Positions 1 through 20,548 of a stretch of DNA of 20,548 bases are shown in pieces. The notes under the pieces were generated by a model. The model saw only the letters and a program-made list of their open reading frames with translations. It did no database searches and was not told where the DNA came from. Within the stretch, counting starts at the first letter, position 1. The number at the start of each line of letters is the position of its first letter. Made by a program: the position numbers and the translations under genes. This DNA comes from a virus (lineage: Duplodnaviria; Heunggongvirae; Uroviricota; Caudoviricetes): the IMG/VR virus record IMGVR_UViG_2872698443_000003, one strand, 5' to 3'.

Positions 1-366
1 ATGATTGATGTCTTAGGACCGGAGAAACGCAGACGGCGTACTACACAGGAAAAGATCGCTATTGTTCAGCAGAGTTTTGAACCGGGAATGACGGTCTCCC
101 TTGTTGCCCGGCAACACGGTGTGGCAGCCAGCCAGTTATTTCTCTGGCGCAAGCAATACCAGGAGGGAAGTCTTACTGCTGTGGCCGCAGGAGAGCAGGT
201 CGTTCCTGCCTCTGAACTTGCTGCTGCCATGAAGCAGATTAAAGAACTCCAGCGCCTGCTCGGCAAAAAAACGATGGAAAATGAACTCCTTAAAGAAGCC
301 GTTGAATACGGGCGTGCAAAAAAGTGGATAGCGCACGCGCCCTTATTGCCCGGGGATGGGGAGTAA
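1..366 (+). CDS. insC: IS2 transposase OrfA (InsC), 121 aa
   Basis: Track ORF 1..366; protein [30 protein letters not shown]... recognised as IS2 InsC. Confidence 0.92.
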
Positions 367-1229
367 GCTTAGTCAGCCGTTGTCTCCGGGTGTCGCGTGC
401 GCAGTTGCACGTAATTCTCAGACGAACCGATGACTGGAAAGATGGTCGCCGCAGCCGTCACTCAGATGATACGGATGTGCTTCTCCGTATACACCATGTT
501 ATCGGAGAGCTGCCCACGTATGGTTATCGTCGGGTATGGGCGCTGCTTCGCAGACAGGCCGAACTTGATGGTATGCCTGCGATCAATGCCAAACGTGTTT
601 ACCGGATCATGCGCCAGAATGCGCTGTTGCTTGAGCGAAAAACCGCTGTACCGCCATCGAAACGGGCACATACTGGCAAAGTGGCCGTGAAAGAAAGCAA
701 TCAACGATGGTGCTCTGACGGGTTCGAGTTCCGCTGTGATAACGGAGAAAAACTGCGAGTCACGTTCGCGCTGGACTGCTGTGACCGTGAGGCACTGCAC
801 TGGGCAGTCACTACGGGCGGCTTCGACAGTGAAACAGTACAGGACGTCATGCTGGGAGCGGTGGAACGCCGCTTCGGCAACGAGCTTCCGGCGTCTCCAG
901 TAGAGTGGCTGACGGATAATGGTTCATGCTACCGGGCTAATGAAACACGGCAGTTTGCCCGGATATTGGGGCTTGAACCGAAGAACACGGCGGTGCGGAG
1001 TCCGGAGAGTAACGGCATAGCAGAGAGCTTCGTGAAAACGATAAAGCGTGACTACATCAGTATCATGCCTAAACCAGACGGGTTAACGGCAGCAAAGAAC
1101 CTTGCAGAGGCGTTCGAGCATTATAACGAATGGCATCCGCATAGTGCACTGGGTTATCGCTCGCCACGGGAATATCTGCGGCAGCAGGCCAGTAATGGGT
1201 TAAGTGATAACAGGTGTCTGGAAATATAG
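324..1229 (+). CDS. insD: IS2 transposase OrfB (InsD), 301 aa, -1 frame relative to insC; OrfAB fusion expected by programmed frameshift
   Basis: Track ORF 324..1229 with DDE-type integrase core; overlaps insC at AAAAAAG 318-324. Confidence 0.92.
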
Positions 1230-1240
1230 GGGCAAATCCA

Positions 1241-1744
1241 CTGCAACGTGCCGGAATCGATTTGGCGATCTACTTTGATGATGCGCCGTCAGCGCAACTC
1301 ACTCATCACTTTCTGATGGATGAAGAAATCCTGCCAGTATGTAGCCCGGAATACGCTCAAAGACATGCTTTAACCAACACGGTAATTAACCTGTGTCACT
1401 GTACGTTGCTCCATGACAGACAGGCATGGAGCAACGACTCCGGTACGGATGAATGGCATAGTTGGGCGCAACATTATGCGGTTAATTTGCCGACATCTTC
1501 TGGAATTGGCTTTGATCGTTCTGATTTAGCTGTTATTGCCGCGATGAATCATATTGGGGTGGCGATGGGAAGAAAACGCCTGGTACAAAAAAGGCTTGCC
1601 AGTGGTGAGCTCGTCGCGCCGTTTGGCGATATGACGGTGAAATGCCATCAGCATTATTACATCACCACATTACCGGGCAGGCAGTGGCCAAAAATTGAAG
1701 CGTTTATTACCTGGCTAAGAGAACAGGTAAAAACCACTTCATAA
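1241..1744 (+). pseudogene. LysR-family transcriptional regulator, C-terminal substrate-binding portion only (about 168 codons); 5' half replaced by IS2
   Basis: Track ORF 1214..1744 begins inside the IS2 right end, so its first codons are IS-derived; no HTH N-terminus. Position next to the torI/attR end matches the K-12 dsdC neighbourhood (synteny inference, not sequence recognition). Confidence 0.6.
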
Positions 1745-7901: not shown

Positions 7902-8011
7902 CTGGATTCTCCTGTCAGTTAGCTTTGAGTAACGCGCCGTGATGCTTATCTCCACGGTTGCTGTCTTGCAGCTGCATTTCGCGCTACTCAAAGCCTTCTG
8001 CTTTGAATGCT

Positions 8012-8236: not shown

Positions 8237-8896
8237 TTAACTAAATGTCTCTTCAGGCCACTGGCTGGCGATAACTTTCCCTACAACGGAACAGCTATCA
8301 TTGCATGGGATCATTGGATATTGCGGGTTTAGTGGCTGTAGGAACACCTGACCGCTATCCCTGATCAGTTTCTTGAAGGTAAACTCGTCACCACCAAGTC
8401 TGGCTATGCAGAAATCACCTGGCTCAACAGCCTGCTCAGGGTCAACGAGAATTAACATCCCGTCAGGAAAGCTTGGCTTGGATCCTGTTGGCGCGGTCAT
8501 GGAATTACCTTCAACTTCAAGCCAGAACGCACAATCACTGGCTTTTTTGGTTGTGCTGACCCATCTCTCCGCATCACCTTTGGTAAAGGTTCTAAGCTCA
8601 GGCGAGAACATCCCGGCCTGAACATGAGAAAAAACAGGGTACTCATATTGTTTTTTAACGGGGGCAGATGAGTATTCGCCAACAGGTGAAAATGTACCGT
8701 CGTGGTTGAATGAGACGTTATCAATACCAAGGTATTTAAACACCACACCAATCTCGTCAAGAGATGGATGACGAGATCCGCGCAACCAGTGACCAATTCC
8801 ACCCTGCGTCATACCAAGCTCTTCAGCTAACTTCTCTTGAGTTATGCCGAGCTCTTTCATTCTGGATCTAGCCAGTTCATACCATTTCATTTTCAT
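8237..8896 (-). CDS. cI: CI-type prophage repressor: lambda-identical C-terminal dimerisation/autocleavage domain, divergent N-terminal HTH domain
   Basis: From ...[39 protein letters not shown] onward the protein matches lambda CI as recalled; N-terminus ([37 protein letters not shown]) does not. Start is ambiguous (ATG 8896, 8890 or 8932; possibly leaderless). Confidence 0.85.
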
Positions 8897-8952
8897 ACCC
8901 TTATTATTACGCTCTGTACTAAAACCATCCATGCACAAGATGTATTTTTTGT

Positions 8953-10671: not shown

Positions 10672-10779
10672 ATGAAATCAAAAATCAAATCGCTACTGGT
10701 CGCTGGTTATAACCACGGCTGGTTAAGTATTTCGTTTGTCGATTTCTGGTTTAAAAATCTCAATCTGAGGGAATCATGA
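10672..10779 (+). CDS. Micro-ORF, 35 aa, hydrophobic (MKSKIKSLLVAGYNHGWLSISFVDFWFKNLNLRES)
   Basis: AGGTGA upstream; stop overlaps the primase-helicase start (ATGA at 10776-10779). Confidence 0.3.
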   Translation: MKSKIKSLLVAGYNHGWLSISFVDFWFKNLNLRES

Positions 10780-12656
10780 CGCCAAGTGAACTTAGCGACC
10801 TGCTTTGGGCGCAGGTTGACAGGGTGGCTCCGCACCTGTTGCCAAACGGCAAGAAAGAGGGGCATGAGTGGGTTGCCGGTAACGTCAACGGTGACAAGGG
10901 AAACAGCCTTAAGGTCAACCTTAGCGGCAAGAAAAAATGGGCTGATTTCGCTGAGGGAGACGGCGGTGACATGCTTGATTTGTGGATGGCATGTCGTGGA
11001 ATTAACCTGCATCAGGCTATGCAGGAAGCGAAAGCCTTTCTCGGAATCAAGGATGACGATCACCATTTCGATGCCAAACGTGAGAAGAAATTCTCCAGAC
11101 CTGACCGCAAGAAAATCGCCCGCTACGTTACCAGAACAGAATCCCATCTTGAGTACCTGCAATCGCGTGGCATATCGCCAGAAGTCGTAAAGCGCTACGA
11201 GGTTGTCAGCGGCAAGGTGTGGAAGGGAGAACGAGAACTTGATGCACTGGTGCTTCCGTACAAACGCGATGGTGAGTTGTTGCAGGTCAAGCGAATCAGC
11301 ACTGAGCGCCCGGACGGGAAGAAAGTCATTATGGCAGAAGGTGATTGCGAACCTTGTCTGTTCGGATGGCAGGCTCTGGACGCTGGCGTGAGGGCGGTTG
11401 TGCTTTGCGAAGGCGAAATTGATTGTATGAGCTATGCGCAATACGGCATCTCGGCGTTATCCGTGCCGTTTGGTGGAGGGAAAGGCGCTAAGCAACAGTG
11501 GATTGAGTTTGAGTACCACAACCTCGACAGGTTTGAGGAAATATTCATCTCGATGGACGTTGATGATGTTGGTCGTGAAGCCGCAAGGGAAATCGCAAGC
11601 CGACTCGGTGAACATCGTTGCCGTCTTGTTACTCTGCCGTACAAAGACATCAACGAATGCCTGATGAACGGTGTTACCGAGGATGAAATCTGGCAGTACA
11701 TCGGCACGGCATCCTACTTCGATCCTGAAGAACTCTACAGTGCGCGAGAGTTTTACCAGGACACTATCAACGCTTTCTACGGCAAGCAGCAGTATCTGTT
11801 TAATCCACCGTGGGAATCTCTGGCAGATAAATTCCAGTTCCGTGAGGCAGAGTTGACGCTGGTCAATGGTGTGAACGGTCACGGAAAAACGGAGGTTGTC
11901 GGGCATATGGCACTTGAGGCAATGCGTCAGGGTGTGAAGACGTGCATCGCGTCACTTGAGCTGAAGCCTGGTATTCTCCTTAAGCGCCTTACCCGTCAGG
12001 CGACGTGCTGCAAGATGCCGCCAGTGCTGGAAATTGACTCTGCATTTAAATTTTATGACGAAAGACTTTGGGTGTTTGGTCTGACCGGAACGGCGAAAGC
12101 CGACAGGCTGATCGAAATATTCGACTACGCTCGCCGCCGATACGGGATCCAGTTATTCATCATCGACAGCCTGATGAAATGTGGCATAGGCGACGATGAC
12201 TATAACGGGCAGAAGGCGTTTGTTGACTCGATTTGCGACTTCAAAAACAAAACAAACTCCCACGTCATTCTCGTTACTCACTCGCGAAAAGGAGACAGCG
12301 AAGAAAAACCAACCGGGAAAATGGACGTAAAAGGCTCTGGAGCGATAACAGACCTGACAGACAACCTTTTCATCATCTGGCGTAACAAGGCTCGCGAGAG
12401 AGCGTTACAGAGAGTTCAGAGTGGTGAAAAGATGTCAGAGAAGGACGAACAGCTACTGGCATCTCCGGCATCTGTTTTGATGCTTGAAAAACAACGTAAC
12501 GGCGAAGGTTGGGAAGGTGGTGTCCCGTTGTTCCTTGACGAGCAATCGCACCAGTTCCTGCAACTTGAATCAGGATCGCCATATAGCTACATCGCCAATA
12601 TGCCGAAATCGGAATATGACGAGGCGTGGCGACAGGAAAACGTGACGGAGTATTAA
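10776..12656 (+). CDS. Bifunctional primase-helicase (Toprim domain plus DnaB/RecA-like helicase core), 626 aa
   Basis: Toprim-like VVLCEGEIDCMS and ISMDVDD; Walker A NGVNGHGKT; Walker B-like LFIIDSL; occupies the lambda P position. Confidence 0.7.
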   Translation: MTPSELSDLLWAQVDRVAPHLLPNGKKEGHEWVAGNVNGDKGNSLKVNLSGKKKWADFAEGDGGDMLDLWMACRGINLHQAMQEAKAFLGIKDDDHHFDAKREKKFSRPDRKKIARYVTRTESHLEYLQSRGISPEVVKRYEVVSGKVWKGERELDALVLPYKRDGELLQVKRISTERPDGKKVIMAEGDCEPCLFGWQALDAGVRAVVLCEGEIDCMSYAQYGISALSVPFGGGKGAKQQWIEFEYHNLDRFEEIFISMDVDDVGREAAREIASRLGEHRCRLVTLPYKDINECLMNGVTEDEIWQYIGTASYFDPEELYSAREFYQDTINAFYGKQQYLFNPPWESLADKFQFREAELTLVNGVNGHGKTEVVGHMALEAMRQGVKTCIASLELKPGILLKRLTRQATCCKMPPVLEIDSAFKFYDERLWVFGLTGTAKADRLIEIFDYARRRYGIQLFIIDSLMKCGIGDDDYNGQKAFVDSICDFKNKTNSHVILVTHSRKGDSEEKPTGKMDVKGSGAITDLTDNLFIIWRNKARERALQRVQSGEKMSEKDEQLLASPASVLMLEKQRNGEGWEGGVPLFLDEQSHQFLQLESGSPYSYIANMPKSEYDEAWRQENVTEY

Positions 12657-12685: not shown

Positions 12686-12717
12686 AGGCCTGCTGGTAAT
12701 CGCAGGCCTTTTTATTT
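12686..12717 (+). terminator. Rho-independent terminator after the primase-helicase
   Basis: Stem AGGCCTGC/GCAGGCCT with 8-nt loop, followed by TTTTTATTT. Confidence 0.6.
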
Positions 12718-12732
12718 GGGGGAGAGTAAATC

Positions 12733-12939
12733 GTGGCTGAGTTTATGCTCGTCGCATTCAAATGCGTTGGCGTTGGATGGATTCTTCTGACGTTTTTTAT
12801 TGTTCTGCATAGCTACATTCGTCTTGTGAATGACGGTAAAGACCCATGGTATACGTTGTTTGGCGCTGCATTTGTCTGGGTGATTATCGGTGTTATGCCT
12901 GTCGCTGTAGCAAAAATGGCGTGGCGTTTTGTGAGTTGA
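12733..12939 (+). CDS. Small membrane protein, 68 aa, two predicted transmembrane helices
   Basis: Track ORF, GTG start with GGGGGAGAG upstream; hydrophobic stretches LVAFKCVGVGWILLTFFIVL and FGAAFVWVIIGVMPVAVA. Confidence 0.5.
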   Translation: MAEFMLVAFKCVGVGWILLTFFIVLHSYIRLVNDGKDPWYTLFGAAFVWVIIGVMPVAVAKMAWRFVS

Positions 12940-12956: not shown

Positions 12957-13313
12957 ATGGACGAATCAAGAAAGCAGTTTGAGGAATACGTTGCCAAAAA
13001 ATTGAGATTACCATTCGAGATGATAACCGAGGCAAGAAATGGTGATAGGTACTTCGCATTTTCAAGCATGGATATTCGTCACTCCTTAAATGAGTGGTGG
13101 ACTTTATGGCAGGCATCGCGAGCAGCTATTGAACTGGATATCGACTGGCCAGAATCGAATGACGACTTTTGGAAAGATGGTGAAGAAGGTGCTTATGCGA
13201 TGGGTTATGAGGATGGGCGTGACAAAACGGTAATTGCAGTAATGAAAGCTATCAGAGCCGCTGGAATTAAAGAGAAGAATTTCGATGAAGCAAACAATAT
13301 TCCTCCGAACTAA
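12957..13313 (+). CDS. Hypothetical acidic protein, 118 aa, at the position lambda uses for ren
   Basis: Track ORF; GAGGGT upstream. Confidence 0.5.
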   Translation: MDESRKQFEEYVAKKLRLPFEMITEARNGDRYFAFSSMDIRHSLNEWWTLWQASRAAIELDIDWPESNDDFWKDGEEGAYAMGYEDGRDKTVIAVMKAIRAAGIKEKNFDEANNIPPN

Positions 13314-13868: not shown

Positions 13869-14212
13869 CAATGGATTATTCACAGTTAAGTGATTTTGAA
13901 ATTAACAGAATGGTAGGAGACATAATTTTTAAAGGCCTTTGGGCAAGTAAACCGGAAACATCAGGGAATAACACCAACAAATGGTATTACGGAAATGCTG
14001 ATACAACTTTTGAGCCATTAAATCATTTGCCTGACTACTGCAATGATCCGAGCGCTTCATGGCCGATTATTGAGAAATACAGGATTTCTATCTTAGACCA
14101 GTTAACTGAATGGTGTGTGGATGCAAAAGGCGTAAGCCCAATATTTGATACCAGACCTCTCCGCGCCGCCATGATTGTCTTTCTCATGATGCAGGACGCC
14201 AATAATGCTTAG
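13865..14212 (+). CDS. Hypothetical nin-region protein, 115 aa (possibly DUF2591/NinX-like)
   Basis: ATG 13865 overlaps the ninE stop (ATGA); track ORF 13829.. has a short upstream extension. Confidence 0.5.
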
Positions 14213-14381
14213 CCCATCCCAATCCCTTCAATACCAGAAAGAAAGCGTCGAGCGGGCTTTAACGTGCGCTAACTGCGGTCAGAAGCTGCATGTGCTGGAA
14301 GTTCATGTGTGTGAGCACTGCTGCGCAGAACTGATGAGCGATCCGAATAGCTCAATGTACGAGGAAGAAGACGATGAATGA
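14205..14381 (+). CDS. ninF: NinF, 58 aa, below the track cutoff
   Basis: Manual translation [58 protein letters not shown] matches lambda NinF as recalled. Confidence 0.8.
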
Positions 14382-15096
14382 GTTAATAAATGGCAATGCC
14401 ATCAAAATGACAAGCATTGAAATCGCTGAGTTGGTGGGTAAGCGTCATGACAATGTGAAACGTACCATCGAAACGCTGGCTAAAAATGGTGTTATCCGGC
14501 TTCCTCAAATTGAGGTTTCCGAAAGAATCAATAACTTAGGGTTCAATGTTCAGTACGAGCATTACGTCTTCGAGGGCGAACAAGGTAAGCGAGACAGTAT
14601 TGTCGTTGTTGCCCAGTTGTCGCCAGAGTTCACCGCTCGCCTTGTTGACCGTTGGCGAGAGCTTGAAGAAGCTGCGGTTAATATCCCCAAAACGCTACCG
14701 GAAGCGTTGCGCCTTGCTGCTGATCTTGCTGAGCAGAAAATGCAGCTGGAAAACCAGCTCGCAATTGCCGCACCTAAAGTTGAGTTTGCCGATCGCGTTG
14801 GCGAGGCCAGCGGAATTTTGATTGGAAACTTTGCAAAGGTTGTTGGAATTGGTCCAAACAAACTGTTTGCGTGGATGCGCGATCACAAAATCCTTATTGC
14901 TTCAGGTTCCCGGCGCAATGTGCCAATGCAGGAATATATGGATCGCGGCTATTTCGCAGTGAAAGAAACAGCGGTCAACACAAATCACGGAATACAGATA
15001 TCGTTCACCACAAAAATCACCGGGCGTGGTCAACAGTGGCTGACCAGAAAGCTGCTCGATAACGGAATGCTGAAAGTAACCGGGGAGGCTGCTTAA
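14374..15096 (+). CDS. Rha-family phage regulatory protein / antirepressor (Rha-like N-terminus, KilAC/Ant-like C-terminus), 240 aa
   Basis: Track ORF; N-terminal [30 protein letters not shown] is typical of Rha proteins; family assignment from recalled features. Confidence 0.6.
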   Translation: MNELINGNAIKMTSIEIAELVGKRHDNVKRTIETLAKNGVIRLPQIEVSERINNLGFNVQYEHYVFEGEQGKRDSIVVVAQLSPEFTARLVDRWRELEEAAVNIPKTLPEALRLAADLAEQKMQLENQLAIAAPKVEFADRVGEASGILIGNFAKVVGIGPNKLFAWMRDHKILIASGSRRNVPMQEYMDRGYFAVKETAVNTNHGIQISFTTKITGRGQQWLTRKLLDNGMLKVTGEAA

Positions 15097-15386
15097 TGGC
15101 TAACCTACGCAAAGAAGCGCGCAACAGAGAATGCCAGGTACGTATTTACGGCGTATGCAATGGCAACCCTGAAACTACAGTTCTGGCACATTACCGGATG
15201 GCTGGAATTTGCGGAACGGGAATGAAACCTGACGACCTGATCGGCGCATGGGCTTGTAGCGCGTGTCACGATGAAATCGACCGACGTACCCATAATATCG
15301 ACAACAAAGACGCCAGACTTTACCACCTCGAAGGCGTGATCAGGACGCAGGCGATACTGCTGAAGGAGGGGAAGATTAAGTCATGA
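15096..15386 (+). CDS. YbcO-like (DUF1364) protein, putative nuclease, 96 aa
   Basis: Resembles DLP12 YbcO as recalled (CQVRI.GVCNGNPET.VLAH.R..G.CGTG.KP.DL...ACSACHDEIDRRTH). Confidence 0.7.
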   Translation: MANLRKEARNRECQVRIYGVCNGNPETTVLAHYRMAGICGTGMKPDDLIGAWACSACHDEIDRRTHNIDNKDARLYHLEGVIRTQAILLKEGKIKS

Positions 15387-15745
15387 ACGAATATCAGTTT
15401 GTGCTTCCATACCCGCCGTCGGTGAACACCTACTGGCGAAGACGGGGAAGCCAATACTACATCAGCGATAAAGGCCAGAAATACCGAAAAGACGTTCAGA
15501 AAATCATCCGCCAACTCAAGTTAGACATTTTCACCAAATCACGACTCCGCATCAAAGTAATCGCAGACGTTCCAGACTCCCGCCGCCGCGACCTCGATAA
15601 CATCCTGAAAGGTTTACTCGACTCACTTATCCACGCCGGATTTGCGGAAGACGACGAGCAATTCGATGACATTCGCGTAATTCGTGGCGTGAAAGTACCA
15701 GGCGGAAGGCTTGGAATAAAAATCACCGAACTGGAGAACGCATGA
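15383..15745 (+). CDS. rusA: RusA-type Holliday-junction resolvase, 120 aa
   Basis: Length and motifs (LPYPPSVN.YWR, DRRRRDLDN) match RusA as recalled. Confidence 0.8.
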   Translation: MNEYQFVLPYPPSVNTYWRRRGSQYYISDKGQKYRKDVQKIIRQLKLDIFTKSRLRIKVIADVPDSRRRDLDNILKGLLDSLIHAGFAEDDEQFDDIRVIRGVKVPGGRLGIKITELENA

Positions 15746-15930
15746 ACGCCACAATTCAAACGATACCAGAGCTTCTTATCCAGACACGAGGCAATCAGAC
15801 CGAAGTGGCGAGGATGCTTTCCTGCGCAAGAGGAACAGTGCTCAAGTACAACCGAGACAGCAAAGGTGAGCGTCACGTAATAGTTAACGGCGTCCTGATG
15901 GTCAAACAGGGCAAGAGGGGAAGACCATGA
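15742..15930 (+). CDS. ninH: NinH, 62 aa
   Basis: TIPELLIQTRGNQTEVARMLSCARGTVLKYNRDSKGERHVIVNGVLMV resembles lambda NinH as recalled. Confidence 0.75.
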   Translation: MNATIQTIPELLIQTRGNQTEVARMLSCARGTVLKYNRDSKGERHVIVNGVLMVKQGKRGRP

Positions 15931-16136
15931 GACTCGAAAGCGTAGCTAAATTTCACTCGCCAAAAAGCCCGATGATGAGCGACTCACCACGGGCCACGGC
16001 TTCTGACTCTCTTTCCGGTACTGATGTGATGGCTGCTATGGGGATGGCGCAATCACAAGCCGGATTCGGAATGGCTGCATTCTGCGGTAAGCATGAACTC
16101 AGCCAGAACGACAAACAAAAGGCTATCAACTATCTG
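15927..16136 (+). pseudogene. Q: Late antiterminator Q, N-terminal 70 codons only, interrupted by IS1
   Basis: MRLESVAKFHSPKSPMMSDSPRATASDSLSGTDVMAAMGMAQSQAGFGMAAFCGKHELSQNDKQKAINYL matches lambda Q residues 1-70 as recalled; the track ORF then reads into the IS1 end. Confidence 0.9.
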
Positions 16137-16191
16137 GGTAATGCTGCCAACTTACTGATTTAGTGTATGATGGTGTTTTTGAGGTGCTCCA

Positions 16192-16467
16192 GTGGCTTCT
16201 GTTTCTATCAGCTGTCCCTCCTGTTCAGCTACTGACGGGGTGGTGCGTAACGGCAAAAGCACCGCCGGACATCAGCGCTATCTCTGCTCTCACTGCCGTA
16301 AAACATGGCAACTGCAGTTCACTTACACCGCTTCTCAACCCGGTACGCACCAGAAAATCATTGATATGGCCATGAATGGCGTTGGATGCCGGGCAACTGC
16401 CCGCATTATGGGCGTTGGCCTCAACACGATTTTACGTCACTTAAAAAACTCAGGCCGCAGTCGGTAA
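16192..16467 (+). CDS. insA: IS1 InsA, 91 aa
   Basis: [43 protein letters not shown]... recognised. Confidence 0.95.
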
Positions 16468-16889
16468 CCTCGCGCATACAGCCGGGCAGTGACGTCATCG
16501 TCTGCGCGGAAATGGACGAACAGTGGGGCTATGTCGGGGCTAAATCGCGCCAGCGCTGGCTGTTTTACGCGTATGACAGGCTCCGGAAGACGGTTGTTGC
16601 GCACGTATTCGGTGAACGCACGATGGCGACGCTGGGGCGTCTTATGAGCCTGCTGTCACCCTTTGACGTGGTGATATGGATGACGGATGGCTGGCCGCTG
16701 TATGAATCCCGCCTGAAGGGAAAGCTGCACGTAATCAGCAAGCGATATACGCAGCGAATTGAGCGGCATAACCTGAATCTGAGGCAGCACCTGGCACGGC
16801 TGGGACGGAAGTCGCTGTCGTTCTCAAAATCGGTGGAGCTGCATGACAAAGTCATCGGGCATTATCTGAACATAAAACACTATCAATAA
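16386..16889 (+). CDS. insB: IS1 InsB' transposase reading frame, 167 aa (expressed as InsAB' by -1 frameshift)
   Basis: Track ORF matches IS1 InsB as recalled. Confidence 0.95.
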
Positions 16890-16969
16890 GTTGGAGTCAT
16901 TACCGTAATGTTGTTCTGAGAAATACTCATATTGGTTGCCTTGATCTTTTTTCATACGATAACACGCAG

Positions 16970-17728
16970 GTGCTTGTAAAAACCAATACCAATAAAATTA
17001 GCTATGGTAACTCATATGAAAAAATTAATTTCCCGGGAGTTCAGATTCATGATTTTAACGCTATGGTTGAGACTTGGACATCATCTATATCAATAGATAA
17101 TCTTGTTATAAATGGTAGTGGTAGGTTATCTAGAATATCTAACTCATTTACATTTAATACGACATCATCGGATTCTCGCGTATTTGATTTTTGGCAGTAT
17201 ACATCTGATGGAGCTGCTGTTTGTAATATTTACAGAAATGAAATTAGCTCAGATTCTCAGTTTCATCATGATGGTACAACTATAGGAGTGGTGATACCAA
17301 TAGCAAATACCGATAATAAGACACTGCGAGTTGTTATTGATAAAAATGTTTTTAAATGTCAAGGGAAAGAAGTCACATTATCTTTCATGGCTGTAAATGG
17401 GTTGCCATCTGTTCAAACTAAAATTTCCGTGAACTTGATATTGAGCTATTCTTCATCATTAGGCGTTCAAAGAGTATATTCATTCGGTGAGTTTGATATT
17501 GGTAGTTCATGGGGGTTGAAAAAATTCACATTAGCAATACCTTTTGAAGGTCTTGTGTCCGCAAGCGATGCGAATGCTTATTTATCCTTTTCGCTTCCAA
17601 AATCACAAGAAGTAAACATCATCATAGCCAATGTTAATTTATGCAAAGGAAATGTTGCTGTGCAGGGGCCGAGTGATTTAAAGGATTGGGATTTACTATC
17701 TAGATCAATTGCATACTACGGTAGTTAA
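16970..17728 (+). CDS. Low-GC Ser/Thr/Asn-rich hypothetical protein, 252 aa; possibly the C-terminal receptor-binding part of a tail fibre or another surface-interaction protein, probably 5'-truncated
   Basis: Track ORF with GTG start; the frame is open upstream into the IS1 right end (no stop from 16772 by my reading); composition resembles fibre distal domains. Function not recognised. Confidence 0.4.
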   Translation: MLVKTNTNKISYGNSYEKINFPGVQIHDFNAMVETWTSSISIDNLVINGSGRLSRISNSFTFNTTSSDSRVFDFWQYTSDGAAVCNIYRNEISSDSQFHHDGTTIGVVIPIANTDNKTLRVVIDKNVFKCQGKEVTLSFMAVNGLPSVQTKISVNLILSYSSSLGVQRVYSFGEFDIGSSWGLKKFTLAIPFEGLVSASDANAYLSFSLPKSQEVNIIIANVNLCKGNVAVQGPSDLKDWDLLSRSIAYYGS

Positions 17729-17732
17729 TATT

Positions 17733-17759
17733 CCAGCCCCGAGATAATCTCGGGGCTGG
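17733..17759. terminator. Bidirectional terminator / perfect 13-bp inverted repeat (CCAGCCCCGAGAT-A-ATCTCGGGGCTGG) between convergent genes
   Basis: Seen directly in sequence. Confidence 0.6.
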
Positions 17760-17765
17760 CATTAT

Positions 17766-19109
17766 TCATCTAACTTCTACTTTATATCGAACTCCGCGTC
17801 CAAGTAAGATAGAAATGAAAGATGACAAAATCATCAAGGCAATTAAGAACACGATGCTATCAAACATGTATGCCAAGCCTATAGGGGGAGACAGCATTAT
17901 TGCCAATGCCCTGCAATAGAAAGATGCTATGAAAGAAGAGTAGAATATATCGCTTCTTAATCTAATGTTTTTTGCTTTACATACACGACCAAGTATCCAG
18001 CCAAAAAATGCAGTCATGAATAAACCGCCGACAAAGCCAAAGTAAACATAACCAGCAAGATCAAAGTGACTTGTTGGCCCCCTTGCTACATCATCCCCAA
18101 GATACCATACCTTCCAAATCATTCTGCCAACATCATTGGCTGAGTAGTCATATCCAAGCATGTTTTGCATTATCCCATTCCCGGCTATATATCCGAATAG
18201 TTGTAGAAATGCATTTTTTACTTGCAACATGTCAATAACTGCATTTGGGAGTGAGAAGTAGTATGCGTCTCCATTTGCAAATATCCGCATGAATAACATT
18301 TCAACAACAACAGGGGCGTCCATGTAGTTTGATTTTGTATACCCTATTGCTGCTGAATTATATGATATTAGGAATAGCACATAAGCAACAAGAGATACGG
18401 ATATAATTAAAAAAACAACCGCACTTTTTATCGTTAGCCTTGGTTTACGACCTGTAAAAATATAAATTGCAATTATAGCAACTAGCAAATGCTCTAGGAG
18501 AGAAAGTTTTGCGCCTGAAACAAAAGACGCAATTATAGATATAATTATAGCTATAAGTGCTATTGATGCTCTTTTCAACCCTCTGGACTTTACTGCCATG
18601 ACAGAAAGATATCCAGTGAGCATCAGTCTTACAACATCAAGTATCCTTACGATAGCACCAAGACCTCTGTTTGCCTCAAACCTAGACTGTACAAAGGCAT
18701 CAAAAGATATACTTTTTATATATATTACCGTTAGTGATATATAAAATATTAGCAACAAATAGAATATTATTGATGAGTTTTTTTTGCATGTATTAAATAC
18801 CTTGTCAGTTGTTCCAAGTAGTCTAAATTTAGGTGTTCTATATGCCAAGTGCATAAACGAAGCCAATACAATCCAGTTTAGAATAATCATGTAGAACAAG
18901 TGATCAGGAATGTAGTTGTAATTCCATAGCATTAATACTATTGCGTAAGAAGTTCCAAATGTGAAGGTAAAATAGAAGTGTATTGGATCTATCACTCCTA
19001 CTGCCAGCTTCCTTACCGTCATGTAACATAAAACAGTTGTTACTGTAGCGTACAGTAAATACTCTGACCAATTTGAAAATATAAAATAAAAAAAGTCTAT
19101 ATCACTCAT
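17766..19109 (-). CDS. Polytopic inner-membrane protein, 447 aa, about 30% GC, Wzy/O-antigen-polymerase-like or GtrS-like; candidate lysogenic-conversion gene
   Basis: Hydrophobic segments throughout the track ORF; very low GC versus about 50% in the rest of the prophage; sits in the int-proximal slot where P22/KplE1-type phages carry O-antigen modification genes. Confidence 0.55.
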   Translation of the reverse strand: MSDIDFFYFIFSNWSEYLLYATVTTVLCYMTVRKLAVGVIDPIHFYFTFTFGTSYAIVLMLWNYNYIPDHLFYMIILNWIVLASFMHLAYRTPKFRLLGTTDKVFNTCKKNSSIIFYLLLIFYISLTVIYIKSISFDAFVQSRFEANRGLGAIVRILDVVRLMLTGYLSVMAVKSRGLKRASIALIAIIISIIASFVSGAKLSLLEHLLVAIIAIYIFTGRKPRLTIKSAVVFLIISVSLVAYVLFLISYNSAAIGYTKSNYMDAPVVVEMLFMRIFANGDAYYFSLPNAVIDMLQVKNAFLQLFGYIAGNGIMQNMLGYDYSANDVGRMIWKVWYLGDDVARGPTSHFDLAGYVYFGFVGGLFMTAFFGWILGRVCKAKNIRLRSDIFYSSFIASFYCRALAIMLSPPIGLAYMFDSIVFLIALMILSSFISILLGRGVRYKVEVR

Positions 19110-19390
19110 AGCTTTACCATACTTGCTTCATCTCACAACAAGATTCAGATTGAATTTATCACACTTTATCACTTTAATGCAGAGCTTCCCACTAACAACT
19201 TCATGAACAGAACATCTTAACAATCATAACATGCTAAAAAATTGTTTAGCATTTGACTTTGTGTACATCATGATGTAAGCGCCAAATTACATGGTTAATA
19301 ATAGACCAATTGCATGAGAAAGAAATTAGACACACAAAGCTTTGTACTGGGTTGCAAGGCTTTGTGCTATTCGATAGTTGTTAAGGTGGA

Positions 19391-20548
19391 TCACTCAGGC
19401 TTTTCATCAAGCCAGTCCGCCCACCACTGCATCATTTCTCTGCGCTTATCGAGATACTGCGCATGGTTGTAAATACCGCGCACAGATCCGCCGTTGGCAT
19501 GTGCCAGTTGCATTTCAATAGCATCAGCAGGCCATTCGTTCTCGTTCATAATCGTGCTGAATTCATGCCTGAATCCGTGACCGCTTTCCAGACCCTCATA
19601 GCCGATTTGTTTGATCACAAGCAATACCGCGTTCTCGCAGATTGGCTTCTTCTTATCGTTGCGCCCGGCAAAAACAAACTCTGAGACTGGTTTGGTGATT
19701 GAGCTTAGCGTAGTGAGAAGTTCAACCACCTGGTCTGACATCGGGACCACATGAATTTTGCGTCCCTTCATCACACTGGCGTCGATGGTGATAATCCTGT
19801 TTTCAAAATCGACGTTCTTCCATAGCATGGAACGAAGTTCTTTTGTTCTGAGGGCTGTGTAGCGTAAAACTTTGGTTGCAATGAGCGATACGATACTTCC
19901 TGAAAATGTTGCCAGTGCTTTGTTGAATGCCGGGATCTGGTCTGCAGGAAGAAACGGGAAGTTCTTCTTGCGGTATCCCTTCATGGCGTCAGCAAGGTCA
20001 GGTGCCGGGTTATATTTAGCCCTGCCGGTGACAATAGCGTAACGGAAAACCTCGCCGCATCTTCTGCGGGCTTTATTTGCTCGCTCCATTGCACCGCGAT
20101 CTTCAAATCTGCGGATTACTTCCAGCAGTTGCATCGGCTCAATATCCTGAATTTCAAGGCCGCCGATGATAGGTAAAATGTCGTCATCAAACATTTTTGC
20201 AAGTTCATTTGCATAGCCTACTGACCAGACTTGCTTCTTGTGCTCGTACCATTCCTTGTAAATCGCACTAAATGAATTGTTGTTAGACGAAGCCTTTTTC
20301 GCCTTTACCGGATCGATGCCAACCGAGATGTCTTTCCTCGCAGTCCATGCCTTATCCCTTGCTTCCTGCAAAGTCATAAGCGGATATTTTCCGACGGTCA
20401 GGATTTTCTCCTTACCGTCAATCTTGTAGCGAAGCTGCCATACCTTTTTCCCGGATACAGGAACATAAAGGTACAGGCCATTACCATCGAGAAGGCGGTA
20501 TGGTTTTTCTTTCGGCTTTGCTGCTTCAATCTGCTTAACGGTGAGCAT
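19391..20548 (-). CDS. intS: P4-family tyrosine integrase (IntS-type, argW-specific), 385 aa; start codon is the last three bases of the window
   Basis: MLTVKQIEAAKPKEKPYRLLDGNGLYLYVPVSGKKVWQLRYKIDGKEKILTVGKYPLMTLQEARDKAW... matches K-12 IntS as recalled; catalytic R..HxxR..Y region present. Confidence 0.9.
   Translation of the reverse strand: MLTVKQIEAAKPKEKPYRLLDGNGLYLYVPVSGKKVWQLRYKIDGKEKILTVGKYPLMTLQEARDKAWTARKDISVGIDPVKAKKASSNNNSFSAIYKEWYEHKKQVWSVGYANELAKMFDDDILPIIGGLEIQDIEPMQLLEVIRRFEDRGAMERANKARRRCGEVFRYAIVTGRAKYNPAPDLADAMKGYRKKNFPFLPADQIPAFNKALATFSGSIVSLIATKVLRYTALRTKELRSMLWKNVDFENRIITIDASVMKGRKIHVVPMSDQVVELLTTLSSITKPVSEFVFAGRNDKKKPICENAVLLVIKQIGYEGLESGHGFRHEFSTIMNENEWPADAIEMQLAHANGGSVRGIYNHAQYLDKRREMMQWWADWLDEKPE

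Follow-up and report, generated by a model that had tools for sequence, protein, structure and literature searches.

The nin region of the prophage described here contains, between ninF and the ybcO-like and rusA genes, a 240-aa gene whose family names connect it with antirepressors. The questions that this locus raises are which gene it is, whether it holds the place that lambdoid phages reserve for ninG, and whether its product acts on repressors or elsewhere. The whole stretch of DNA that was analysed, 20,548 nt long, is called the window below. The gene and its closest neighbours are the following.

14205..14381, + strand: ninF, directly 5' of roi (Pfam NinF, 47.3 bits)
14374..15096, + strand: roi coding sequence, 240 aa (ORF call; orthologue of the HK620, HK022 and Stx-phage roi genes)
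15096-15386, + strand: ybcO-like gene (Pfam YbcO, 145 bits)
15383-15745, + strand: rusA (Pfam RusA, 61.8 bits)

The ORF list contained a 240-aa ORF with an ATG start at 14374..15096 (+), confirming the gene that a preliminary description of this DNA had placed there. Its position between ninF and the ybcO-like and rusA genes, also given in that description, agreed with the ORF list and the Pfam matches, and the 8-nt overlap that had been noted with the ninF stop was verified from the coordinates of the ninF TGA (14379-14381) and the roi ATG (14374-14376). From this overlap we infer that translation of roi is coupled to that of ninF. A Shine-Dalgarno-like GAGGA was located at 14361-14365, 8 nt 5' of the roi ATG. 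At the other end, the roi TAA (15094-15096) shares 1 nt with the ATG of the ybcO-like gene. RusA is followed on its 3' side by NinH (Pfam, 85.7 bits) and then by the start of Q, so that the order in the window is ninB-ninE-ninX-ninF-roi-ybcO-rusA-ninH-Q', the same as in HK620 and HK022. Thus roi lies in the nin region between the replication genes and Q, after ninF. Two minus-strand ORFs within roi (14562-14861 and 14695-14886) were treated as spurious, because the plus frame has strong protein homology. Two further ORFs of the nin region, at 12957-13313 (118 aa) and 12733-12939 (68 aa), have counterparts in HK022; neither matched a Pfam family.

It is essentially certain that the gene is roi, one of the accessory delayed-early genes found in the nin region of lambdoid phages, because it is 99.0% identical in nucleotide sequence to the annotated roi of HK620 with identical gene order (ninB-ninE-ninF-roi-hkbD(YbcO)-rus-ninH-Q in HK620), and because its product is 88% identical in amino acid sequence to HK022 Roi (241 aa) over 240/241 residues. 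At the protein level, HK620 Roi and the window Roi are 99% identical, and in HK022, with which Roi was first defined (Clerget & Boccard 1996, PMID 8763934), the 241-aa orthologue is found in the same gene order. The roi gene of Stx2 phage 86 is 97.8% identical to that of the window, and those of HK633, HK140, CUS-3, Kapi1 and many Stx-converting phages showed 97-99% nucleotide identity. The Roi proteins of HK022, HK620, H-19B and Stx phages share with the window Roi the length of 240 or 241 aa, the Rha+KilAC architecture and the place in the nin region. HK022 Roi differs from it in residues 22-63, which belong to another allele, and the window copy differs from those of HK022 and HK620 in that the prophage around it is defective and has its Q interrupted by IS1.

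The preliminary description had left the gene without a name, although roi was already named and has been partly characterised in HK022, HK620 and Stx phages. To our knowledge, HK022 Roi is the only member of the family that has been studied by experiment, and recent papers that mention Roi or KilAC in E. coli offered annotation and no functional study beyond it. The gene is also very common. A roi match was present in 1110 of 5426 complete E. coli genomes (about a fifth), with up to four copies in one genome; copies 100% identical to that of the window were found in four complete E. coli genomes. The wider Rha+KilAC family comprised 7159 clusters at 50% identity (E<=0.001). The find itself is a routine re-identification of a named lambdoid accessory gene and matters little; the only new observation is the variation of a putative recognition element in the N-terminal domain and its lack of linkage to other phage modules, which are described below.

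The gene had been assigned to the ninG position, but this did not hold. In Stx2 phage 86, roi and ninG stand side by side (ninE-ninF-roi-ninG-ninH-Q), and the 240-aa protein gave no match to the NinG family of Pfam. When seven loci were compared, the 3' neighbour of roi was either a 201-aa NinG or a 96-aa YbcO protein followed by RusA, and the allele of roi was independent of which of the two was present. Since roi adjoins ninG in Stx phages and its alleles are independent of this neighbour, roi has a slot of its own, between ninF and the junction-resolvase slot, and it is ybcO and rusA that substitute for ninG.

15096..15745, + strand: ybcO-like + rusA module, the occupant of the ninG slot (Pfam; in Stx phages NinG is found there)

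The domains of the product were then compared with the family assignment, which described a Rha-family/KilAC-type protein. The domain search supported this assignment: both domains were present, and Phage_pRha as well as ANT/KilAC scored above the Pfam cut-offs.

14407..14670, + strand: N-terminal Phage_pRha domain (PF09669), aa 12-99 (Pfam, 36.7 bits against a cut-off of 29.9)
14749..15057, + strand: C-terminal ANT/KilAC domain (PF03374), aa 126-228 (Pfam, 112.8 bits against 25.3)
14695..14805, + strand: long central helix, aa 108-144, which joins the two domains (AlphaFold2, H108-144)

The Phage_pRha match spanned the full profile (positions 1-91; the 29.9 bits are the gathering threshold). 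The NCBIfam model for phage_pRha, TIGR02681, stayed below its cut-off (17.9 against 45.95 bits), with only aa 12-36 aligned. Among close homologues, the ANT/KilAC half was nearly invariant. An AlphaFold2 model, built from 70 diverse full-length homologues, had a mean pLDDT of 90.6. The elements of its N-terminal domain were E11-13, H14-21, H25-37, E45-52, E58-67, H68-80 and H84-100, consistent with a predicted strand-helix-helix-β-hairpin, winged-helix-like, followed by two helices. Reading from the order of the secondary structure elements rather than from the output of a tool, we assigned the second helix and the β-hairpin as a putative recognition helix and wing. The central helix would possibly serve as a dimerisation element, and the KilAC domain models as a MerR/excisionase-like winged helix. 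With modest confidence, both halves of Roi therefore look like DNA-binding modules in the model. A sequence search of the PDB with Roi returned nothing at E<=1, and Foldseek with the Roi model gave no significant match.

Whether such a protein could act on a repressor depends on when it is made. The window is an HK620/Sf6-like prophage, which carries, in addition to its CI repressor, cro, cII, an O gene and a gene for a toprim/DnaB-type primase-helicase.

8237..8938, - strand: resident CI repressor, HTH_3 + Peptidase_S24 (Pfam; LexA-like self-cleaving type)
12686..12709, + strand: tR2-like intrinsic terminator, 5' of the nin genes (terminator scan; HK620 annotates tR2 equivalently)

Between the terminator at 12686-12709 and roi, a consensus scan found no sigma-70-like site, the nearest one being at the IS1 junction. 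The same kind of scan found no LexA box near roi or within the nin region; in the window as a whole there were 8 one-mismatch matches against 6.5 expected. With a terminator on its 5' side and no promoter-like site of its own, roi is probably a delayed-early gene, made after CI inactivation and N antitermination, and thus would not be the trigger of the induction of its own prophage. As the resident CI carries Peptidase_S24 and is of the self-cleaving type, an antirepressor should not be needed for self-induction either.

These results bear on the antirepressor function that had been proposed for the gene, namely that Roi acts in trans and inactivates CI-type repressors of its own or of co-resident heteroimmune prophages, thereby locking in or co-inducing lytic development. 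The proposal goes back to the family name: the C-terminal domain belongs to PF03374, which is named after P1 Ant1 and KilA, and Roi matched PHROG 63, labelled 'anti-repressor Ant', at 4e-99. For roi, this database label is a name transfer and not a function. In favour of the proposal, the multiple roi copies per genome point to polylysogeny, and Fels-1 FsoA offers a precedent, as it acts on Gifsy-2, has own-repressor control and plays no role in self-induction (Lemire et al. 2011). The separate control that is typical of functional antirepressors (P22 Ant, P1 Ant1, 186 Tum, Gifsy GfoA/GftA) was, by contrast, not found for roi, which lacks an independent promoter or LexA box, and Roi showed neither pairing with a non-cleavable repressor nor immunity-matched specificity. 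In particular, roi differs from the Gifsy paradigm in that it sits together with a CI of the self-cleaving type. The predicted resemblance of both Roi domains to DNA-binding folds also speaks against a repressor as the target.

Comparison with the antirepressors of P1 and P22 pointed in the same direction. The ant gene of P1 lies in the immI region, is under c4 antisense control and antagonises C1. Roi shares a homologous KilAC domain (PF03374) with P1/P7 Ant1/Ant2 and P1 KilA; unlike Ant1/Ant2, it has another N-terminal domain, another locus and no independent control element. Even for P1 Ant1/2, according to Azulay et al. (2022), what these domains do precisely has yet to be clarified. P22 Ant and phi24B Ant (P22_AR_N/C) share with Roi the frequent annotation as 'antirepressor' and may lie beside it in the nin region, but they have no domain in common with Roi, and in many phages they are encoded by a separate ORF directly 5' of roi. 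Phages that carry roi allele 3 or 4 show this arrangement, with an ORF6N+P22_AR_C gene in place of ninF. This gene corresponds to the P22-Ant-like 'Ant' of phi24B (Fogg et al.). Because this Ant-like gene adjoins roi as a separate ORF, the Ant homologue and Roi are distinct and coexist, and are not interchangeable, which further argues against Roi as the antirepressor of these phages.

In the same allele 3 and 4 phages, the Ant-like gene is followed by a terminator-like hairpin, AAACCCAGCTTCGGCTGGGTTTTTTATT (7927-8000 in each of two loci, L009 and L011), and then by roi; the end of its T-run is about 20 nt 5' of the roi ATG. The control of roi in these phages may differ from that in the window, where roi overlaps ninF.

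If Roi recognised repressors, the part of the protein that varies between phages should follow the repressor gene. We therefore analysed the variation of Roi along its length. Among 114 close homologues, almost all variation fell in residues 22-63, and the rest of the protein was more than 95% conserved.

14437..14562, + strand: hypervariable cassette, codons 22-63 (per-position identity, 114 close homologues)

The cassette covers exactly the predicted second helix and β-hairpin. It occurs as at least five discrete alleles with sharp borders: against HK022, identity at the DNA level was 99% through codon 21, fell to 55% over codons 22-63 and rose again to 96.6% beyond them. The window and HK620 have an identical cassette, yet their CI proteins are 33.6% identical, and in two other loci (L011 and L012) Roi was 100% identical while CI was 23.6% identical. 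One and the same Roi protein (P0026) was found with a Q of the PF03589 type or of the PF06530 type, and the same Roi protein also occurred with different replication modules. Non-linkage of the cassette allele was thus seen in four comparisons, that with the resolvase neighbour above included. Without linkage to cI, the cassette does not behave as a determinant of repressor specificity. Together with the self-cleaving CI and the absence of a promoter-like site or LexA box for roi, the finding of identical Roi beside heteroimmune CI proteins led us to set the antirepressor proposal aside as improbable. As the cassette is linked to none of the four modules compared (cI, Q, replication and resolvase), its partner should lie within roi itself or in the host.

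The window was also searched for sites of IHF, the host protein with which Roi has been connected in HK022.

14526..14538, + strand: AATCAATAACTTA (WATCAANNNNTTR), exact IHF consensus core, inside the cassette at nt 153 of roi

Four of the five alleles keep the core at this position, although the sequence around it differs by about 45%, and HK022 has it at the same position; the 933W-like allele lacks it. Because the conserved peptide I-N-N/D-L-G is encoded by the same nucleotides, constraint at the DNA level and constraint at the protein level are inseparable here. The number of exact IHF consensus matches was rejected as statistical evidence in its own right, since the window contains 2 against 1.28 expected, which is not above chance. 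The second exact match, TATCAATAAGTTG at 16881-16893, is located at the right end of IS1; the ends of IS1 are known to bind IHF. An operator for Roi was searched for as direct or inverted repeats in the window and in HK022 roi, and the search returned only short two-copy repeats at the level expected by chance, some of them shared simply because the DNA is conserved.

The site to which HK022 Roi binds reportedly lies in roi itself, adjacent to an IHF site, and IHF is said to stabilise this binding; with point mutations in roi, HK022 reportedly grows on hosts deficient in IHF. Two papers describe HK022 Roi as a DNA-binding protein and link it to lytic growth and IHF dependence (PMC3430580; PMC4587872). 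The Rha family has been tied to the same growth block in IHF mutants in phi80 and P22 (PMC4936722). The Rha proteins of phi80 and P22 are like Roi in having an N-terminal Rha domain and in being genetically defined by the growth block in IHF-deficient hosts, whereas rha of the P22 type differs in being located after the lysis cassette and in lacking KilAC.

Taken together, we propose that Roi regulates the delayed-early phase as a site-specific DNA-binding protein linked to IHF, and that its invariant KilAC half may act on a conserved host target such as the SOS system; we give this reading a probability of roughly 0.55. Roi would be made only after CI inactivation and with N antitermination active, and would not trigger the induction of its own prophage. 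Like HK022 Roi, it would bind specific DNA and work together with IHF, probably at a site in roi or close to it. Roi and IHF would then tune the read-through of the early operon toward Q, or the balance between early and late expression, and in hosts that lack IHF the action of Roi would turn against lytic growth. Specificity for the type of phage would come from the variable N-terminal domain, and the invariant KilAC half would engage a conserved partner, which could be DNA or a factor of the host, for example the RecA/SOS system.

The IHF phenotype could also be viewed as a sign of interference between phages, with Roi serving as an abortive function that blocks competing lambdoid phages in some host states, as phi80 Rha does in him mutants. 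Rha-family genes are indeed defined by inhibiting the growth of lambdoid phages in IHF-defective hosts, and HK022 Roi, as described in the papers cited above, gives the same phenotype. A prophage with no late genes that keeps roi 100% intact would fit such a function as well. In a lysogen, though, roi should be silent, since it belongs to the pR operon, lies behind a terminator and lacks a separate promoter. The phenotype on record is that the phage inhibits itself in mutant hosts, which differs from the exclusion of phages in wild-type hosts, and the PADLOC defence models gave no match. We consider an interference function very improbable.

The loss of late genes mentioned here was evident from the right part of the window, which was compared with the related locus L003 (NZ_CP128939 1429293-1460015).

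16970-17728: C-terminal fragment of a tailspike gene, directly after IS1
17766-19109, - strand: O-antigen polymerase gene
19391-20548, - strand: intS, right end of the prophage

IS1 (16192-16889; Q and IS1 together span 15927-16889) interrupts Q some 70 codons from its start, with insA at 16192-16467 and insB' at 16386-16889. The N-terminus of Q matches that of HK022 up to ...KAINYL. In the close relatives TUM9754 and S163-2, Q resumes past IS1; genes for lysis, head and tail come next, and about 26 kb further on there is another IS1. As IS1 is followed directly by the tailspike fragment in 16890-20548 of the window, the late region was apparently lost by a deletion between two IS1 copies, which left the prophage defective. 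No damage is apparent in the early region, to which roi belongs.

The KilAC half of the proposed regulator brings in the AriS-like proteins of Listeria phages. When overexpressed, the KilAC domains of these proteins inhibit the SOS response, probably via RecA, whereas the N-terminal domain (AntA/B, Bro-N or pRha) acts on the phage, and pRha+KilAC is one of the listed architectures (Azulay et al. 2022). Roi agrees with the definition of an AriS-like protein in combining pRha and KilAC and in being encoded in the early lytic operon. Its KilAC domain is 32% identical over 117 aa (E 8e-17) to that of A118 gp42, which was among the proteins tested. AriS of phi10403S and A118 gp42 resemble Roi in having a variable N-terminal domain of a DNA-binding type, a conserved KilAC domain and a gene in the early lytic operon; they differ in that their N-terminal domain is AntA/AntB and not Rha, and in having a Firmicute host.

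From this comparison, modulation of SOS could be taken as the main role of Roi and the Rha domain as secondary. After induction, KilAC would inhibit RecA/SOS, temper the cleavage of repressor and coordinate co-resident prophages. It would accord with this that KilAC alone was sufficient for the activity, and that the activity was kept in homologues down to about 30% identity (Azulay et al. 2022), a range that includes the identity of the KilAC half of Roi to that of gp42. The near-invariance of KilAC across the roi alleles likewise fits a conserved host target. SOS damping by AriS was, however, seen in Listeria and upon overexpression only, and deletion mutants had wild-type SOS levels; for Roi it is an analogy at 32% identity, from Firmicutes to E. 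coli. Moreover, SOS modulation leaves both the IHF phenotype of HK022 and the reported DNA binding unexplained, and the predicted fold of KilAC resembles DNA-binding winged helices. As the main role of Roi, we therefore find it doubtful, although a KilAC activity on SOS is kept as a possible part of the IHF-linked regulator proposed above.

The two halves might also be combined in a more elaborate scheme. The cassette would mark a self-contained second specificity system of lambdoid phages, in which an allele-specific complex of Roi and IHF inside roi gates read-through to Q, and KilAC would at the same time damp RecA/SOS in E. coli. We regard this scheme as speculative and rather improbable. 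If both of its parts held, the timing and the cross-talk of Stx prophage induction would depend in part on the roi allele. More generally, roi is common in E. coli and in Stx-converting phages, and the cassette together with the AriS analogy could link it to the timing of induction or to SOS damping, a link that would bear on the release of Shiga toxin.

Several minor observations were made in the window and its relatives. The replication module at 10776-12656 encodes an O protein and a 626-aa primase-helicase with toprim and DnaB-like parts. HK620 and HK022 have a DnaB-like P, and other phages that carry roi have lambda P; this is a mosaic swap of the replication module within otherwise near-identical nin regions. 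Rfam returned nothing for the whole window.

At the left border of the window (1-1744), a transposase gene of the IS3 family (rve, 324-1229) splits a LysR-family gene, the C-terminal part of which is at 1214-1744; the same was seen in TUM9754. By its position, we take the split gene to be dsdC-like. By comparison with TUM9754, a torI-type excisionase gene lies just inside the left end.

Intact relatives carry a second Rha gene (pRha + ORF11CD3) after the lysis cassette, at the position of P22 rha (19806-20330 in L003 and 12647-13165 in L011), and thus one phage can encode two Rha-type proteins. In the window, the copy of this gene was lost in the deletion.

Finally, residue 195 of the window Roi (14956-14958) is a rare alanine, as about 98% of close homologues have another residue there. 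In the sequences examined, HK620 and HK022 included, this residue is threonine, and the KilAC domain is otherwise invariant.
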